64,000 nt of DNA. Source: Lama glama. Lineage: Eukaryota. The notes below the pieces were generated by a model that did no database searches, had not been told where the DNA came from, and worked only from the letters and a program-made list of their open reading frames with translations. Of the stretch, positions 8,272-37,488 are shown piece by piece. A program made the translations under genes and the position numbers. The stretch is taken from NCBI GenBank assembly GCA_028534125.1, contig CM052821.1, positions 8,618,001-8,682,000 of the forward strand. Direction: 5' to 3'. Each line of letters starts with the position of its first letter. Within the stretch, counting starts at the first letter, position 1.

Positions 8272-9207
8272 CTACCTAAAATATTGCAGATATTTCTCCC
8301 ACACCCTTTTCACAGCTGCCTTCACTTCCATGTTCTTGAGGCTGTAGATGAAGGGGTTCAGCATGGGTGTGACCGCACTATACTGCAAGGAGGAGAGCAA
8401 ATCCAGGGAGGAACCAGAGGAAGGCATGAGATAGCGAACAAAACCTGAGCCGAAGAACAGGACCACCGCAATGAGATGGGAGGAGCAGGTGGAGAAGGCC
8501 TTACTTCTGCCTGTAGTGGAGCTGATGCTCAGGATGGTGGAGACAATGCGAACATAAGAGAAGAAGACTGGGAGGAACGTTCCAAAACCATGCAGTAAGA
8601 TTAAGCAGATCAAGATGTCAATATTGACAGAGATATCAGAGCAAGACAGAGGGAAGAGGGAGGGCAGCTCACACGTGTAGTGGTGTATGATTTGAGCCTC
8701 ACAAAAGTCCAGGTTAATAGCCAAAAGCACAATTATGACTGAATTGAAAGAGGCCAGACCCCAGGAGGCCAGTAAAAGCTTTATGCAGAACTGGCTGCTC
8801 ATCACTTGGCTATATAATAGTGGATGGCAGATGGCGACATAGCGGTCATAGGCCATCACTGAGAGCAGAAAGGCTTCGGTCCCTGCAGTGATAAACACAA
8901 AGAAGACTTGAGTCAGGCAGCCCTCAACAGGGATGGTTTTCTTCTCAGACAGGAGGTCCTTCAGTAGCTTGGGCACAGTGACAGAAGAGAAGCAGAGGTC
9001 TAGGAATGAGAGATTACTTAAGAAGAAGTACATGGGCGTGTGGAGGTGGGAGTCAGTCCTGATCACCAGCAGCATCGTCAGGTTCCCCATCATGGTCAGG
9101 AGGTAGATCCCCAGGAAGAGCACAAAGAGCAGAGCCTCGATGTGGGGGTCATCAGACAGCCCAGTGAGAATAAACTCGGTGATGGTGCTGTGGTTCCTCA
9201 AGGCCAT
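8272..9207 (-). CDS. Olfactory receptor, OR8S subfamily (OR8S1-like paralogue A), intact, 311 aa
   Basis: Single-exon ORF with an NHS glycosylation site and the motifs LHTPMYFFLSNLS, MAYDRYVAICHPLLY, KAFSTCSSHL and PMLNPFIYSLKN. Confidence 0.95.
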   Translation of the reverse strand: MALRNHSTITEFILTGLSDDPHIEALLFVLFLGIYLLTMMGNLTMLLVIRTDSHLHTPMYFFLSNLSFLDLCFSSVTVPKLLKDLLSEKKTIPVEGCLTQVFFVFITAGTEAFLLSVMAYDRYVAICHPLLYSQVMSSQFCIKLLLASWGLASFNSVIIVLLAINLDFCEAQIIHHYTCELPSLFPLSCSDISVNIDILICLILLHGFGTFLPVFFSYVRIVSTILSISSTTGRSKAFSTCSSHLIAVVLFFGSGFVRYLMPSSGSSLDLLSSLQYSAVTPMLNPFIYSLKNMEVKAAVKRVWEKYLQYFR

Positions 9208-11253
9208 TTGTGGAGGACCTTTCTTTGGAGTGAAATAGAAAGAGGGATGAGAGCGTCTGTCTCCTCCAGAGCTTCACCCCTCTTCTCACACATCCTTCCC
9301 TGCTCTGCTTAGACTCTGCGCTCAGACATCTCAAAGCTGCCCTAACTGTATCTCAGTGTTTTCATCCTGTTTTGTGGTCACTGATCTTGGGTCCCAGTCT
9401 TCACATACTTCAGATAATCCCATTCTTCTTCCATAGGCATTTACTGGGAAAATGAGTATCTCTGGCTTACCTCTACCTTCACAGTATTTAGATTCCACTC
9501 CGTCCTTCCTATCCTTTAGAAATCCTAAAATTTCTAACACAAGTTCTAGCACAAATCTAAACCTTCTCTCCTCTCTTCAGTTTCCCCATCATATTTTTTT
9601 GTTGTTGTTCAAAATCTTAATAGGATTGACATCCAGTTGGTGCAGTAGGTACAGTGCCAAGGGCCACAATTCTTTTACGGCTGATGGAAATGTTTTGTTT
9701 TGTTTTTTTAAAGATCAGAAGGAAAAAAATGTAGACTGGATTCTATTTCTCTCTATAACTGTAATCATAAAGCACAAATTTTAATATATTTTATCAAGAA
9801 GGAGACTACAATGGCAAAAGTGCCTGGGGCCAATGAAAGTCATGATGTGCCCTGCTCCGTCCTTCATAAATAGCACATTTCACTTTAATAGGATTGTAAT
9901 ATATACAGAGACCTTTATTACTTATCTTAATTGTTTCAAGGCAATGCTGTGAGATTTGACAGGGAATTATTATCCTTGGGACAGGGAATTTTATCCCCAT
10001 TTACCTGGGAGAAGTCTGCTACTAAAGAATATTTGGCAATGTCATGTTGACAACAAGTAGAAGAAACAGGAAATAAACCACATTATGTTCTAACATTATC
10101 AGCCCAATATCTAGGCTTAGTCCCCAGGAATAAGGGATGCTTTTCTTACTCTGACATTAAGAGCACTTCCTCATCTGCCCCTTAACCTTTTAGCCATTTT
10201 GGCTGCTTTCAGTACAGAAAGGTCTATTTCTATTCTTCTTCTTTCAAATGTCCTCCTAATTCCACTGATTCAAATTCTCCCAGCCCTTCCAATGTGCCCT
10301 ATAAACAGACTTATTTCCTTAGAGCCTGTCTTGCCTGCTCTACCCTTTAACCCACAGCTCTCTGTTGAAATCACTGGACCCCTTGGTCTCAGCTGCCTTA
10401 TGTCATAGTCTAAATTCTGTTTCTTTTCTCATGCTAAATATACATCTTGGTTTTCCTCCCTGGATTGTGAGTTCCTTGACAATAAGGGCTATAACTTAAC
10501 AACAACAATGATAAATCAGCATTTCTCTGGCTCTGTCCCCATTCATTCTGTCCCCACCCATGAGCTTCTGATCACCTCTCAAATTCCTCTTAGATTATCT
10601 TGGAATAATCTCTTTATGGCATCTCATGTGTACCTCAGACAAGCCCTCCTGACTACTCTAAGCTAAGTCTCATCCTTCATTCCAGTGGCCCCAGGTGTAC
10701 TACTGCCTGGCAGAAACGTTACTGATGTTATTGTCCACCAGCGATGCCATGCTGCCTGCCTATGTTTCACAGGGGCTACTGCTGCTGAATGTGCTGTCTC
10801 ATGTCCTTGCAACATCCTTTGATGCCCTCTCTTTTTTGTATAATCCACTAGCACGTTTGCCACCATTGCAAGAAGCTCTTGCATTCATGGTATGGATACT
10901 CTATTGCCCCAGGAGGGTCAGAGTGAAAAGATTCTTACAGTTTTCTTTTAAACTTCTCTTTCACCCTCTTACTCTAGGTATCAGCTTTGTGAGTAGTTTA
11001 TACTAGTGCCGATACTAAGAATCACTTTGAACCCTAATTTCTAGGACTTTGTGGTAAGTCACTGTCTTATGTGAAGGTTCCTGCCTCACTTGGACATTTT
11101 GGGGCTAATTGGCCAGTATTCTGTTTTTGTCCATCAGTCCACAATCTGATCCCATGAGAGGCTTCTGTCCTCACAAAATTATACGGTCTTGCTGATTCAG
11201 AGAGCTCTGTTTCTGACCTATACAGCTTGCCAACAATCTATCATCAAGAGATG

Positions 11254-16562: not shown

Positions 16563-18548
16563 AAACAAAATTTCTCATCTTGACACCATTTATTGTTACT
16601 TTCCTCTTTCATTCTTTTTCTTTTCTTGCTTTCATTCTTTTTAATACTAAATTCCTTGACAGTGTGATCTAAATTAACTGTTTTATTTTATATCTTCCTA
16701 CTTACTCAGCACCCTGATATCTGGCTTCCACCCCACCACTGCTGCCACTGGTATTACTTATACGTATTTCTGGAATGAGAGACTATTTTATAGCATGAGG
16801 AACTGGTCGGTGGGGGTAGATGGCCCAGGATTAATTAGCTCAAACCAGTTCTCAAGACAAATTACTGACAAGTCCATCTAAATAAATGTGAATTTGCCTA
16901 AAATCTCCACTGCCAAATTTAGATTTCACATATAATGGGATGGTTTCATTCCCTTTGGTGACATAAACAATCCTTTCTTAAATATATCACTTTATTGAGG
17001 TATGACTGACATAAAAAAAGTTTATACATATTTAATGTATACAACTTCATGAGTTTGGAGATAAGTATACTCTTGTGAAGCNNNNNNNNNNNNNNNNNNN
17101 NNNNNNNNNNNNNNNNNNNNNNNNNNNNNNNNNNNNNNNNNNNNNNNNNNNNNNNNNNNNNNNNNNNNNNNNNNNNNNNNNNNNNNNNNNNNNNNNNNNN
17201 NNNNNNNNNNNNNNNNNNATTGATAAGCTACCAGTTAAGTCTGATGCAGAAACTTATTCCAGTCACTTAATTACAAGCTCAGTGAAATTTCATAATTCCT
17301 CAGTCATACATGGTTTAAAATTATTCACATTTTCACCTTCATGTCTGTTGTCACAGGTAATGTTATGCTTTGTGCAGGCACCCACTGTGGTGTTTGTGAC
17401 GGGGCATCTACTCCACATCAGTGGCTTCCTTAGTCCTCTACCAGCCTCCTGCTCCACATAGGACCCATCCCTTCTTGGCTTTAGGTATGTCTCACTCCCT
17501 GCTGGCAATCTATGTGTCTTTAATCCTCCTCATCCAGTTGTTGGCAATATCGACCACGCTGAATCCTCTGATTCAACTCCTTATTCCACTCGTGGTACAC
17601 TTCGCTGGTCACTAGCGCTCTCACTATAAGGTAATATCCAGCACCTCTAGCGGAAACACAGAAATCTTCTTCTATCCTCCCGTGCCATTCTAAGTCCAAG
17701 AGAAACTCAGGAAATTGTCTCCTATCTACTTAGATCTACATGGGAAATAAAGTTTTAACTTGTTTTACAAGTCTTTCAGTATGTGTTAGAGTGTAAATGA
17801 AGGTGATTGTTGAGTTAGGGGACATTATTCTCTATTCTATGAGCAAATCGTAAGAATTTTAAAGTGTTATTAGAAGTGATGTCATTATTATAAGCCTCTT
17901 AATTTGGTAACAGCTGCAGTGATTTGTAAGAAAAGACTGCTCCTGTGTTGACCCCAGGAATGGTTGTTTAGGTCATCTACGTAGTCAGTTCAGGGCTTCC
18001 TTCAGGTCTAGAGGAAGAAAGGGAATACGGTTTAGTGCCCGGTAAAATATCTCTTCTAAGAAGCCTCTCCTGGGTCTGTTGGCTGCACATGGGGTTGAGG
18101 CATCCACTGAGAAAACAGCAGAGGCTCAGTTCAGACTCTGCAAAATGTGGAGGCAAGTGCTCAGGAGCAGTAAGAGCAGCAGTCAGGGAACAAGGAACAC
18201 AGAGTTCAATAGATAGGTGTACCCAAAGAATGTAGAAAGTTTGTTGTGACCCACTAGAAAAATTATTTCCTTAGTTCAACTTTATTTTTTGTCAAAATTT
18301 ATAAAACTCGATCTCCATCTTTGTGGGGTTTTTGTTGTTGTTGTTGTTAGTTAAGAGGTCTTGAAGACTGATTTATTTGTGATGGCCTCACTGTAAGGAG
18401 ATGTAACACCATCAGCAGAAGCTTGTATCTTCCAAGTGGAGTGTGAGAGCAGCTGAATTACCAAGAAGGCTGAATTCACACTCAGCAAATCTGCATTAAA
18501 TTCAGGGAATATAATTCTCGCAATTATACTGAGTAAATGTGACTTAGT

Positions 18549-19487
18549 TCACCACTTGAAATATTGCAAATATTTCCCCAGTGTCCTTTTCACAGCTGTC
18601 TTTACCTCCTTGTTTTTGAGGCTGTAGATGAGGGGATTCAGCAGGGGTGTGATCACACTGTACTGTATGGAGAAGAGTAAAATAAGGGAGGAACCAGAGG
18701 GAGGCATGAGATAGCGAAGCATCCCTGAGCCGAAGAACAGGATCACTGCAATGAGGTGGGAGGAGCAGGTGGAGAAGGCCTTGCTTCTGCCTGCAGTGGA
18801 GCTGATGCTCAGGATGTTGAGTATAATATGGACATAGGAGAAGAAGATTGGGAGGAAGTTTCCAAACCCAAGGAATATAGTGGATAATGACAAGATACTG
18901 ATACTGATGGAGATATCAGAGCAAGACAGAGGGAAGAGGGAGGGCAGCTCACACATGTAGTGGTGTATGGTTTGAGCATCACAGAAGTCCAGGTTAATAG
19001 CCAAAAGCTCAATGATGACTGCATTGAGAGAGGCCAGACCCCATGAGATCAACACCAGCCTCACACAGAGCTGGTGGCTCATCACTTGGCCATAGACCAG
19101 CGGGTGGCAGATGGCGGCATAGCGGTCATAGGCCATGGCAGAGAGCAGACACGCTTCATTCCCTGGACCGAGGAACACGAAGAAGATCTGGGCCAGACAA
19201 CCTTCTACCGAGATGGTTTTCTGCTCAGATAGGAGGTCCTTCAGTAGCTTAGGCACAGCGACACAAGATAAATAGAGGTCCACGAATGATAGATGACTCA
19301 GAAAGAAGTACATGGGTGTGTGGAGGTGGGAGTCAGCCCTGATCACCAGCATCATTGTCAGGTTCCCCATCATTGTCAAGATATAAAACACTAGGAAGAG
19401 CACAAAGAGCAGAGCCTCGATGTGGGGTTCATCAGACAGCCCAGTGAGAATAAACTCGGTGATGGTGCTGTGGTTCCTCAAGGCCAC
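18549..19487 (-). CDS. Olfactory receptor, OR8S subfamily (paralogue B); full 7TM ORF but the canonical ATG is replaced by GTG
   Basis: 312 uninterrupted codons with MAYDRYAAICHPLVY, KAFSTCSSHL and PLLNPLIYSLKN. The codon at 19487-19485 is GTG where paralogue A has ATG. The ORF-track start at 19532 is also a GTG. Confidence 0.85.
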   Translation of the reverse strand: MALRNHSTITEFILTGLSDEPHIEALLFVLFLVFYILTMMGNLTMMLVIRADSHLHTPMYFFLSHLSFVDLYLSCVAVPKLLKDLLSEQKTISVEGCLAQIFFVFLGPGNEACLLSAMAYDRYAAICHPLVYGQVMSHQLCVRLVLISWGLASLNAVIIELLAINLDFCDAQTIHHYMCELPSLFPLSCSDISISISILSLSTIFLGFGNFLPIFFSYVHIILNILSISSTAGRSKAFSTCSSHLIAVILFFGSGMLRYLMPPSGSSLILLFSIQYSVITPLLNPLIYSLKNKEVKTAVKRTLGKYLQYFKW

Positions 19488-20598
19488 TTGTGGAGGGTCT
19501 ATCTGTGGAGTACAACAGAGCAATGAGATCACCTGTGGCTGTTCCTCTCTCCTTCAGTATATCATCACTTCTAATCATCCCTCCCTGGTCATCCTGGATG
19601 CTGGGTCCTGGATGCTTGAATTATTATAATTCAAAGTTATCCTCACTGATGTCAGTAGAAATTTAGAAATTTTATCTTGTTTTGTTATTATTGATCTTGG
19701 GTTATAGTCTTCACACACTTCAGAGAGTCCTACACCTTTTCCATGGGGATTTAATTGGAGAAATAAATGTATATGGCTTATCTACGCATAGATGGATGAT
19801 ATGTAATTTCAGCTGGATTCTTCTTATAGTTTAGAAATTCTTATAGTCATTCAGTTTTGAAAAACATTATAGCACATATCTTCAAAAGTTGTTCTAAACC
19901 TTCTCTCAGCTCCACATTTCTCAATTATTATTTCTTTTTTCATAGTCACCCAATAGCTTTTAAAGTTAACAGTATATTAATTTTTAGTAAGGTTTTTGCA
20001 TGTAGGGTCTTTTTTAGATCACTGTTTCAAGTTGTTCCCCCTGGGCATTTATGATTTATTTTGGCAGGCACTCATGTCCATTTTACTCGTGGGAAAACTG
20101 ATATTCATGGAGATTTTGTAGTGTCATGTTGAGAAACAGTGTTTGAGCCAGGAAATAAATTCAACCGTTTTTTTCTAAATCAGTTCTCCACTTGGTGCAC
20201 AGCATTATAGACTGTTTTTCCTACGCTTACAGTTGGAGTCCTTCATTTTCCCTTAATCTTTCAATCGTTTAGTTTGCCTCTGATACCAGATAGGTTTATA
20301 TTATTCTGTGAGTGTGCTCACAGTGTTTTCTACTTCAAAAGTCCTCTTTCTTAATTCAGCTAATCCAAATTCTCACGGGCCTTCCAGCCTCAGCTTCCCT
20401 CTTGTGAAGTGTGTGTTGACTGATCTCTCCTCTAAATCCACAGCTCTCTATCCAAACACTGGGTTCCTTGCGTCATGTCATAGTCTGAACTTTGCTTTTA
20501 TTCTCATTTAATGTTAAGCATGTATCTCAGTTTTCCCTCTAGACTGTGAACTGCTTGAGAACACGGACCCCCATCTAACAAGAACAACCGTAACTCAC

Positions 20599-20625
20599 CA
20601 TTTCTTTGACTTCCTTTCTGAACAT
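20599..20625 (-). CDS. Candidate upstream coding mini-exon (MFRKEVKEM) for OR paralogue B
   Basis: The minus strand reads ATG TTC AGA AAG GAA GTC AAA GAA ATG|GTGAGT. This phase-0 donor matches the phase-0 acceptor ctgttgtactccacag|ATA GAC CCT CCA CAA GTG GCC at 19502. There is no transcript evidence. Confidence 0.45.
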
Positions 20626-23600
20626 TCTGTGTTAGCTTCAGATTAGGCCTTTCAGATGATTCTGAAACTTCCCACATGACATCTCACGTGTGCCTCAGAC
20701 AAGAAAGCTCTTGACAACTCCAGTCACAATCTCCTTCTTTCACTTCACTGTTTCCAATAGCACTGAAGCCTGGCAGAAGTGTTGCTGACGTTGCTGTCCA
20801 TCAGTGGTGCCATGCTACCTACCCAGGATGCACTGGGCTGCTGCTGCTGAATTTCAAGGATGCTACTATCTACATGGATCACGTTATCTTATGTCACTGC
20901 AGACTCTCTGATGAGATCTCATTATTCTTTTTTTAAAGAATGCACAGGCCTTTTGCCATCATGTAAGAAGCTCCTTATAGTTTTGGTGTGGATGCACTAT
21001 TCTTTTGTTGTTCTATAAGGGTCAGAGTGAAATATCACTATAGTTTTCTCTTAATCATATCTTTTATCCTCAGTCTCATTTAGGTGTCCAAGAGGATCAG
21101 GATGGTGAGCAGCACATATGAGAAGGGATACTATACCTAGAATAATTTTGAATCCTAATTTATAGTTCTACAAAGTAGGTCATGTCCTATTTATGAAAAC
21201 TACTGCATGACTTGGACATTTTCAACTAACTTACCAGTCTTCTGCTTCTGTTTGACACTCTGCTATCTGACTCAAAGTAGACTTCTGAACTTACAAAATT
21301 TTTTCCCCCTCCTTTTTCGGTTGTATTAGGTAGAACTATTATAGTTGGACTGCACGTACACATTATATTGCATGTAAATACATATATACAGTATACTGCA
21401 CATTTTTGTAGTTTACATGTATGTACTAATGATTGTTTCTAAGAACAGATTAGATCTTTAGCTTTTTAAACTTACATAGTTATCAAAGGAATAAAGCCAA
21501 CTACAAAATAATTTTAAAACTGTTTTTTTTTCAGAGTACCTGTTTCTGGCCATTCTATCCTTGCAAATGATCTATGACCCCAAATTAAATAATCAAAAGA
21601 AGCTTAAATTCTGATCACATTAACAAGCCTATCAATTTAAGCTTCAGCTCATCTTACCCAAATCTAAGTTACCCGTGGGCCTGGACAAATAGGGTAATGT
21701 TCACTTTTCTGTCCCTCCAGGACTTTGATGTAGTGATGCAGAAGCATAAGCCGCTGGAGGATTTACTGCTGAGGATCCTGCATGGATAAATTTGTAAATG
21801 CTGTTGAAAGCAAAACTTTTTCATGAAGTTTATAAAAGCAAATTAAAATAATAAGTTTTGAACTTATTTCTTTTGCGGAGCTTTGATGTTTTTATGTATT
21901 TTAATTATTTGGGTTTTTAAAGCTACCCTGAAAATTGCTTCTTTTTTTCCACTTTGACTCACTGGGACACCTGACTACAGTGGCCATGACAAGGTCAGGC
22001 TTTCACATTAAGTGAGATTAGTTGTGGAATCTCTTATATTTCTTCAGCGCAGTATTTCTGGAGAATCCTCTTTCTCTCTTATCCTACCCCCACATTTGGT
22101 GTGTATGAAGACGTTACCTGTATCCTGTGATCTGCACGGTATCACAGAGCAGGGAGTCCAGCCACCCTGCTCATCTTAGAGAACCTCACACAGATGTGAT
22201 GGATTTCTTTAAACACTAGTATAAAGTCTTGCAATTCAATTCTAGATCAAGTCATTAGGGGATAAATCTGAGTTTTCATTTACTTATGGAATAGAAAGTA
22301 TTGGCTTCACTTCATACAGTCTTATGACACTGAGTCAGATTCATATAAGTGTGAGAACAGAAGAAATCGTGGAAAGTGAACAATGGAGCAGTAGATCACA
22401 GCAAAGGGAAAACAGCTGTGAAAAGGGGATTTTAGAGGTGTTCTAGACAAGCCTTGACCACAGTGGTTGTTTAAAGACATTTTTGAAATGAATAAATGCA
22501 TTAATGGTGTCTGTGGGATGTTAGCCTTTACACGCTGGCTAAAGGGACCCTGAGTACTGAGGGTCAATATTTAGACTTTAGGGGCAAGAGGGAGAAATTT
22601 GATCAACAGAGAAAGATAGCAGTGCTGGAAGGATGAAGGGACTAAAGACAAATTCATCCACTTGTAATTATTCTCCTAGCTGTCCACTCCTGTGTTCCCT
22701 CGCATTTTTCATACCGCCTCCGTGGGAACCAGATCTGTTTAACTTACAGAATATGTTTACTGACACCACTCTAAAGGAATTCTGGCCAATTAGGGGAATA
22801 ATTAGCTCCAGAAATCCAGTATCTATCTCTGATACCCTTATTTCATTCTGGGCGCCAGCTTTCTGCAGTGAGAGGATTTATGCCTAGGTTGTAAGGTGTC
22901 CCAGTCCCCAGTGTTATACAGGGAGGAATGAGAGACCTTTCTGATTTACTTTGCAGGGCAGCTGGAACAGATGCATCTTTGGAAGAGTGAGATATCTGGT
23001 CCGTTCAAGGAGAGGAGGTGGCATGCCAAGGAGTGGGAAGTTACCATTCCAGCCCAGGGGGAATGGAGTATAGTGGGATCTTCTGACTTTAGAATGAATG
23101 GAATGCATCACAAAGTGGCAGTGGTTAGGAGTGGAGAAGAGGACAAACAGCAGATTAAAGCACACACAAAACTTCCCAGGGAGAAAAATATGGGGACATC
23201 AGAAAAATCAAGGAAGATATTACCATTTTTTGATTTTTCTGGAGGGAAGCAGCTCCTGAGTCTTCTGTCTTTCATGTCACAGGCTGACACATCAGTGGTA
23301 AAGTCCCCCAGAAGAGCACCTGTCACAGGACTTTCACACTCAACATATCAGATTTTTTCTTTGCTGTCAATGAGTGCAGGGCATTCGAGAGGTTCAAGCT
23401 CTAGAAGCACTGGAAATGTCACTGATTCAGGATTATTCTTCTTTATATCTTAACTTAGAGTGGTCTCATTCTGCAATGCAGACCACTATATGGAAAGACA
23501 AAAACAATCTCCCTAAAGAAGCTCAAATTCTGCACAACTGGCTTATATTTCTTTAAAATCTTCTCACATGATATCAAGTGCAGTGATGTGCCTTCTTTTC

Positions 23601-32044: not shown

Positions 32045-32986
32045 TCAGCACCTGATATGCTGCAAATACTTTTCTAAAGTTCTTTGCAGAGCTGCCTTCT
32101 TCACCTCCTTGTTTTTCAGGCTGTAAATGAGGGGATTCAGCATAGGAGTGACTACAGTATATTGCACAGAGAAGATCAACTGCATGGGGGAACCCGAATT
32201 TGGCATGAGATGGCGGAGCAAACCTGAGCCAAAGTAAAGCGCCTCTGCAGTGAGGTGGGAGGAGCAGGTGGAGAAGGCCTTGCTTCTGCCTGAGGTAGAG
32301 CTGATGCTCAGGATGGTGGCGATAATGCGGACATAGGATAGGAAGACCAAAAGGAAGGTTCCCAGCCCATGCAGAAGAGTGGAACAGAGCAAAGCAATGA
32401 GGTTCCTGGATATATCAGAGCAGGACAGCGGGAGGAGAGAGGGCATTTCACAGCTGTAGTGAGGGATGATTTTGGCCTCACAGAAGATCATGTTCATTGC
32501 TAGGAAGATATTGATGAGTGCGTCCAGAAAGCCCAGGCCCCAGGAGCCCCACACAAGCTGCATGTACAGCTGTTTATTCATGATCTGTCCATAAAGCAGT
32601 GGGTGGCAGATGGCGGCATAGCGGTCATAGGCCATCACGGAAAGCAGACAGGCTTCAGTCCCCGCAGCAACAAACACAAAGAAGACCTGGGCCAGGCAGC
32701 CCTCCACTGATATCGTTTTCTTTTGAGACAGGAGGTCCTTCAGTAGCTTGGGCACAGTGACTGAAGACAAGCAGATATCAACAAAAGAGAGGTGACTCAG
32801 GAAGAAGTACATGGGCGTGTGGAGGTGGGAGTCAGCCCTGATCACCAGCAGCATCGTCAGATTCCCCATCAGGGTCAGGAGGTAGATCCCCAGGAATAAC
32901 ACAAAGAGCAGAGCCTGGATGTGAGGGTTGGCAGACAGTCCAAGGAGGATGAACTCTGTGACAGTGCTGTGGTTCCCCAAGTCCAT
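32045..32986 (-). CDS. OR8S1: Olfactory receptor 8S1 orthologue, intact, 313 aa
   Basis: Carries motifs I recognise from human OR8S1: QLYMQLVWGSWGLGFLDALIN, EMPSLLPLSCSDISR, GSGLLRHLMPNSGSP and IFSVQYTVVTPMLN. An acceptor tttctag| lies 16 nt before the ATG, and the gene is syntenic with C12orf54. Confidence 0.9.
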   Translation of the reverse strand: MDLGNHSTVTEFILLGLSANPHIQALLFVLFLGIYLLTLMGNLTMLLVIRADSHLHTPMYFFLSHLSFVDICLSSVTVPKLLKDLLSQKKTISVEGCLAQVFFVFVAAGTEACLLSVMAYDRYAAICHPLLYGQIMNKQLYMQLVWGSWGLGFLDALINIFLAMNMIFCEAKIIPHYSCEMPSLLPLSCSDISRNLIALLCSTLLHGLGTFLLVFLSYVRIIATILSISSTSGRSKAFSTCSSHLTAEALYFGSGLLRHLMPNSGSPMQLIFSVQYTVVTPMLNPLIYSLKNKEVKKAALQRTLEKYLQHIRC

Positions 32987-37399: not shown

Positions 37400-37488
37400 A
37401 GTAATTTTTCCACCAGTAACATGGAAAGAACTTTCGCAGTGTTTCTCTCATAGCTGCCTTCACCTCCTTGTTCTTCAGGCTGTAGATG
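37400..37488 (-). pseudogene. 3' remnant of a fourth olfactory receptor
   Basis: The minus strand encodes IYSLKNKEVKAAMRETLRKFF, matching the C-termini of the neighbouring ORs. Homology stops abruptly at a (TG/TA) microsatellite at ~37488. Confidence 0.75.

Follow-up and report, generated by a model that had tools for sequence, protein, structure and literature searches.

A camelid OR8S-like olfactory receptor gene that has lost its start codon and may be rescued by splicing from an upstream ATG

Background

Split olfactory receptor (OR) genes were defined by Barnes et al. 2020 (PMC7055050), with 13 cases in human and 41 in mouse. In the part of that paper used here, the class 1 split ORs are receptors formerly called pseudogenes for want of a start ATG (for example, Olfr1174-ps/1175-ps/1177-ps and OR5D3P, with the intron at amino acid 9); 5' exons of a single codon (intron at amino acid 1) are given for Olfr286-288, Olfr735/OR4Q3 and Olfr1358, and the introns of the mouse split ORs range from 550 to 22628 nucleotides (nt).

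The DNA analyzed here is a stretch of 64,000 nt from Lama glama (the window), in which genes A, B and C are all OR8S1-like receptors by similarity and Pfam. Gene B resembles class 1 as presented in that source: its main exon is without a start ATG, an upstream exon would supply the start in frame, the predicted intron would lie in the N-terminal domain and, at 1096 nt, fall inside the mouse range, and the predicted product would have 318-326 amino acids (aa). The sequence criteria given there for class 1 describe what is found in B, namely no start ATG, a two-exon open reading frame (ORF) of 300-350 aa (in B a predicted one) and no downstream ATG yielding a protein of more than 300 aa. Our main reading is that translation of B begins at an ATG forming the end of an upstream exon, which is spliced in frame over a 1.1-kb intron (20599->19502); we give it a probability of roughly 0.4. 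The broader statement, that B is a camelid-specific split OR of the known class with its start in any upstream exon, is probable at somewhat better than even odds. The features are collected in Table 1.

Table 1. Features of the OR8S-like locus (window coordinates; P, gene model; X, sequencing run)
Feature	Position	Strand	Remarks
Gene B main exon	18549..19502	-	OR8S1-like, clade of cattle OR8S25; acceptor, 5 codons, then GTG and 312 open codons
GTG at the site of the family's ATG	19485..19487	-	Seen in window; same in DNA runs X14 and X10; Val in Camelus models P0125 and P0127
Splice acceptor, polypyrimidine tract and CAG	19503..19530	-	Best of 96 AGs between donor and coding sequence (CDS); same in X14 and X10; homologue of the 9222 site in A
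Putative intron, 1096 nt, phase 0, predicted	19503..20598	-	In-silico splice
ATG/GTGAGT donor, abutting ATG 20601-20599	20593..20601	-	Kept in X14, X10 and X15; gives M-IDPPQVALRNH, 318 aa
9-codon in-frame mini-ORF	20599..20625	-	First ATG lost in X15
Possible upstream exon extent if internal (putative)	20599..21012	-	21012 is the best acceptor within 630 nt
Rival coding 5' exon	21235..21363	-	Strongest donor, CTG/GTAAGT at 21234; in-frame ATG 43 codons up
Rival coding 5' exon	21673..21747	-	Used by older Bactrian model P0127, 342 aa; weaker donor near homologous place in A
Exon of spliced antisense RNA	17379..17484	+	X15 shows the 3' end; 5' limit is a prediction based on an acceptor; donor TAG/GTATGT
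Next antisense exon	20761..21000, continues past 21000	+	Acceptor ...ttccaatAG before 20761; X15
Paralogue A	8272..9222 (CDS 9207-8275)	-	311 aa, own ATG at 9207, AAG acceptor at 9222; 1 aa from alpaca P0066
A's mini-exon homologue	10514..10546	-	Two ATGs 24 nt apart; donor position reads CTGATT
Paralogue C	32045..32986 (CDS 32986-32048)	-	313 aa, own ATG, acceptor 16 nt upstream
Likely A/B gene-conversion tract	19393..19486 (vs 9113-9206)	-	Codons 1-31 without synonymous difference; overall 47/231 same-residue codons have one

Loss of the start codon in gene B

Gene B encodes a 7tm_4 domain protein (Pfam, E 1.9e-52), and its best matches in a protein search are named olfactory receptor 8S1-like, at up to 84% identity. 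A first-pass annotation of this DNA had reported a GTG at 19487 with 312 open codons and a next in-frame Met inside the first transmembrane helix (TM1). Both are present exactly as described, the Met being residue 39 (M39) and the product from it, 274 aa long, being without most of TM1. That annotation had also asked for the base at 19487 to be checked in raw reads; the GTG is unchanged in both DNA runs that were compared (X14 and X10, 2 of 14 listed high-share runs, the comparison covering the 5' 83 nt of the main exon). In the contigs of these runs, which come from two other organisms and cover 19457-21000, the GTG, the acceptor and the donor are all unchanged.

The dromedary (P0125) and Bactrian (P0127) models have Val at position 1, both reading TDPPQVALRNH. 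An assembly error or a rare allele at 19487 is ruled out by these models together with X14 and X10. Because the window has GTG and both Camelus models have Val, the start loss predates the split of the Old World and New World camelid tribes, which is placed at about 16.3 million years (My) ago in the part of PMC12127551 used here. Judged from these sequences, the loss of the B start is real and camelid-wide, and older than about 16 My.

The RefSeq entries XP_031538720, XP_032349759, XP_010962752 and XP_031319488 represent the B locus and lie 2-9 aa from the window's B. The models of V. pacos, C. ferus, C. bactrianus and C. dromedarius begin at M39 and have 274 aa, free of stop or X; an older version has a different 5' exon and 342 aa, and the 20599 donor is used by none of them. 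The camelid B models were drawn from the protein cluster of alpaca A, in which the two longer models are P0125 and P0127. An exact look-up of the window's A, B, the M39 and M40 forms and C in the protein collection returned 0/5 identical entries.

A candidate upstream exon

The first-pass annotation had proposed that B is rescued by splicing. The acceptor (...ctccacag) lies at 19502, 15 nt upstream of the GTG and in phase 0, and the ATG-GTGAGT donor lies at 20599/20598, both where it had placed them; joining them in silico gives 326 aa, MFRKEVKEM-IDPPQVALRNH..., and starting at the ATG at 20601 instead of that at 20625 gives 318 aa. Either two-exon ORF aligns without gaps against the orthologues, with the seven-transmembrane region intact. 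The nine-codon start MFRKEVKEM did not hold up as the conserved form. In a single X15 contig (depth 4.1), from a relative 2-3% diverged, the ATG at 20625 reads ACG, with the donor-abutting ATG and GTGAGT preserved; in 3/3 runs covering it, codon 2 of the mini-ORF is unlike the window. Since only the donor-touching ATG survives in X15, a one-codon contribution (318 aa) is likelier than MFRKEVKEM as the candidate common to the relatives.

Among strong donors, that at 20598 lies nearest to B, and it comes second of the 174 GT sites in 3.5 kb when scored with a crude frequency matrix that is good for ranking sites only. The start Met and the donor are kept in all three close relatives covering the site, at 0.3-3% divergence only; nine nt would stay unchanged at 2-3% divergence about three times in four, and such retention being expected by chance, the conservation of the donor says little. 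The motif itself is near chance level (the window has 0.19 donors per kb per strand that score at least 8 and have an ATG in frame within 60 nt). Two points weigh against the 20598 donor: the closest paralogue, A, is without it, and an in-frame ATG accompanies seven more donors within 6 kb, including a stronger one (21234) and one on which a gene model relies (21672). The usual arrangement at this locus places an acceptor closely before the start codon (15 nt in A, 15 nt in B, 16 nt in C), so that B could be rescued from any donor in phase 0 that has an open ATG. Scanning for promoter motifs with O/E and homeodomain patterns found no cluster fixing a start site. In searches for further copies of the upstream block, a genome search matched the block itself alone, and a local blastn of 20 neighboring stretches matched A alone.

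RNA evidence

The 20599->19502 junction was seen in none of four runs (two of them RNA or RNA-guessed, neither covering the B main exon; none known to be olfactory, and no olfactory run identified among the 24 listed). No B sense transcript was seen in the runs; X15 and X18 are without coverage over 19420-19680, a gap that carries no weight either way, and the four 151-nt pieces of X18 resemble DNA or unspliced RNA. An X15 contig reads unspliced across the 20598 donor; it sits inside an antisense intron and is therefore uninformative on B's own splicing. The antisense splice appears in X15 as 27 loose letters matching 17455-17481 (+) with 2 mismatches (0/100 shuffles), followed by the acceptor at 20760/20761. 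It has canonical GT-AG ends and comes from a single contig of a single run, with a short side of 30 letters; its 3276-nt intron contains all of the B CDS and the donor.

The alpha-lactalbumin gene (+; L028:1501-1656, equal to G000:C6:8606122-8606838) lies about 12 kb before the window and is transcribed towards the OR cluster. Read-through from that gene, about 29 kb upstream, is a possible source of the antisense RNA.

Constraint on gene B

Compared with Camelus, the window's B has 7 (dromedary) or 9 (Bactrian) differing residues among 312, and the control gene A has 6/311. Neutral simulation leads to an expectation of about 14 aa differences for B at 2.1% divergence, a rate pooled from 13 differences/558 non-coding nt in X15 and from the GlyCam-1 introns (34-35 differences fixed between Old and New World camelids over about 1693 nt, by hand count from Table 2 in the part of PMC12849490 used here). 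Under neutrality, the probability of at most 7 differences is 0.03-0.06 and of at most 9 is 0.11-0.17, that of an open frame is 0.21-0.25, and the joint probabilities are 0.013-0.020 (open and at most 7) and 0.037-0.057 (open and at most 9). The test uses protein counts, an indirect neutral rate and, uncorrected, a frame picked for being open; its result is borderline, and the signal is gone at 1.5% neutral divergence (P 0.25).

A stretch that is probably non-coding differs from the Bactrian model at 3/25 codons, as against 7/312 for B versus dromedary (Fisher P 0.03). B departs from the consensus at 2/146 highly conserved columns, the mean over 118 homologues (120 matches minus 2 fused models) being 2.06; at a 90% threshold it has 10 departures against a mean of 5.6, and 15/118 homologues have as many. 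Branch lengths in the tree show faster evolution in B than in A, at 0.12 vs 0.057 for the stem and 0.031 vs 0.020 for the crown. These comparisons provide moderate evidence for continued function, with B apparently constrained but relaxed, and B is probably neither dead nor misassembled.

Paralogues A and C and the age of the duplication

Genes A and B align over the entire 1096-nt putative intron. At A's site the first-pass annotation had described two ATGs separated by 24 nt, a CTGATT at the donor position, an AAG acceptor and A's own ATG, all of which are there; its description of the AAG as weakened needs qualifying, the site being A's best acceptor (7.2 vs 9.0 on the crude matrix). The same AAG acceptor is used by the dromedary gene model P0125. 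The run of codons without synonymous difference suggests gene conversion just downstream of the B start codon; the tract does not narrow the age of the GTG. More 50-nt blocks of 47-49 matches between the two CDSs occur further along.

The B clade makes up 13 rows of a 46-row tree (support 93/99) and includes pig, cattle OR8S25, deer, goat, oryx, horse, rhino and pangolin. The in-exon ATG is present in all 11 non-camelid clade-B proteins, which start MALRNH in the main exon (annotated proteins begin with Met by construction). Since these orthologues keep the ATG, the A/B duplication is much older than the start loss; on the tree it predates the pig/horse/camel split, and A's own ATG is the ancestral state.

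The earlier proposal that the duplicates had divided two ancestral ways of starting translation (subfunctionalization) found no support, and we regard it as very remote. It draws on the alignment of both upstream ATGs between A and B and on the mirror-image states of the genes, A having the in-exon ATG without the donor and B the reverse. However, every non-camelid member of clade B has the in-exon ATG, and B lost its own tens of My after the duplication. Donors of B that score at least 6 and align to A reach that score in A in 0/13 cases (three more are unaligned), the reverse comparison gives 0/8, and A/B upstream identity is flat at 0.63-0.81 over 5 kb, with no peak at the mini-exon. As no aligned strong donor is shared, A's missing GT is ordinary background turnover; complementary losses dating from the duplication were not found for this pair.

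Alternative explanations

If no upstream exon serves B, the gene could be a start-loss pseudogene in slow decay, any product being the 274-aa form from M39, without the N-terminus and most of TM1. Substitution in camelids is slow enough that 21-25% of neutral simulations along the Old/New World path left the frame open, B has a longer stem and more tip changes than A (R50S, L106F, T57K, A77V, L47Q, I269), the current RefSeq models use M39, and the runs, of which the RNA or RNA-guessed ones did not cover the main exon, yielded no sense transcript. Against decay stand the joint neutral probability of an open frame with so few changes (0.013-0.057), the count of B differences between the tribes, which matches that of intact A, and the intact highly conserved columns; we consider it rather unlikely. 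Initiation at the GTG itself would produce the exact family N-terminus, and GUG starts occur in mammals (PMC5666671, in the part used here). The start context is weak, however, with G at +4 but C at -3, and near-cognate starts are described in the same source as far less efficient and more context-dependent, which makes this a highly unlikely explanation.

A functional split gene could also take its start from another upstream exon, through the donor at 21672 or 21234 or one further up. An in-frame ATG accompanies 8/26 of the donors scoring at least 5 within 6 kb upstream of B, among which 21234 has the highest score, and 21747-21673 is open with an ATG in the window and in the Bactrian model and has a donor-like site near the homologous place in A. 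Yet these exons would add 30-48 residues, more than most published N-terminal split cases; the 21672 donor is weaker (6.8 vs 9.8) and stands behind a short upstream ORF, the codons of 21747-21673 diverge at a neutral-like rate (3/25), and later versions of the Bactrian and other models omit this exon. When the first 80 aa of P0127 were searched against proteins, the extension occurred in no other protein among the 25 matches listed. Overall, a start in one of these other exons seems unlikely. A six-codon upstream ORF occupies the same place in both genes on the minus strand, just behind a shared AG (MQDPQQ in B, 21783; MQEPQK in A, 11513).

Proposed origin of the split

Of the split-exon rescue first proposed for B, the view of a gene that is probably neither dead nor misassembled stands, and the ATG-GTGAGT remains the best single candidate; its junction was seen in 0/4 runs. 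Under the main reading, splicing at 20599->19502, the intron would be an ordinary 5'-untranslated region (5'-UTR) intron that precedes the start codon in all OR8S paralogues here. The upstream ATG, presumably older than the A/B duplication, would have chanced to be in frame; it could have made the in-exon ATG dispensable, and the latter would have mutated before about 16 My ago. The common product would be M-(I/T)DPPQVALRNHS..., 318 aa, retaining the N5 glycosylation site and TM1, and New World camelids might gain eight extra residues via the ATG at 20625.

We tentatively see here, at rather less than even odds, a split OR caught at birth: the start codon would have moved upstream over an existing 5'-UTR intron, with no insertion of an intron into the CDS, as an old incidental ATG at the last three bases before the donor took over in the camelid ancestor and the canonical ATG decayed, in a gene that now lies inside the intron of an antisense RNA. 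If this is true, the 274-aa RefSeq models of four camelids, which are without the N-terminus and most of TM1, are wrong, repertoire counts that score start-less ORs as pseudogenes are too low, and the locus offers a dated, lineage-restricted case of split-OR origin; the class itself being published, the surprise is modest.

Other receptors and gene models

Several other OR sequences were noted. In one (L016:6139-5372 and 3734-3591, minus strand), a 1.6-kb intron interrupts the coding sequence near residue 257; its layout is that listed for OR5BS1P/Olfr240-ps1 in the part of Barnes et al. used here, and it may be that gene, judging by layout and neighborhood. An isolated OR 3'-end fragment of 26 codons (37410-37487, minus strand) sits beside a TA/CA repeat upstream of paralogue C. 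An OR without an in-exon Met (L014:906-1830, minus strand) has damaged motifs and a shifted 3' end and resembles a pseudogene, with ATG-GT sites upstream. Two near-identical OR8S-like genes on unplaced 1.8-kb contigs (L004 and L005; C219220 and C219642) are probably alleles or recent copies. The models P0125 (dromedary), P0154 and P0164 (goat) and P0001 and P0002 (pangolin) fuse adjacent OR8S paralogues via the pre-start acceptor and are likely prediction artefacts.

Comparison with known split receptors

Gene B groups with cattle OR8S25 among the OR8S genes (human OR8S1, cattle OR8S25, mouse Olfr282), and it is unlike the annotated ones, which have an intronless CDS starting MALRNH or MAWxNH. 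Human OR8S1 is a single-exon gene in the Barnes GTF, and the split list, in the part of PMC7055050 used here, includes no OR8S gene, nor Olfr281-285. Literature searches on camelid ORs, OR8S1, GTG starts and antisense or read-through RNA returned no title on the B locus.

The class 1 cases, as described in that part of the paper, have RNA junctions, and their Met and junction are conserved in other mammals, whereas B is known from its sequence and in camelids, its non-camelid orthologues having the in-exon ATG. The split-OR class is thus already published, and B is most likely a further case of it, with the 20598 donor as the best, though unproven, candidate for its start. The two also differ in how the split would have arisen: Barnes et al. 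describe, in the same part, the insertion of introns, whereas the start of B more likely moved over a 5'-UTR intron that already existed.
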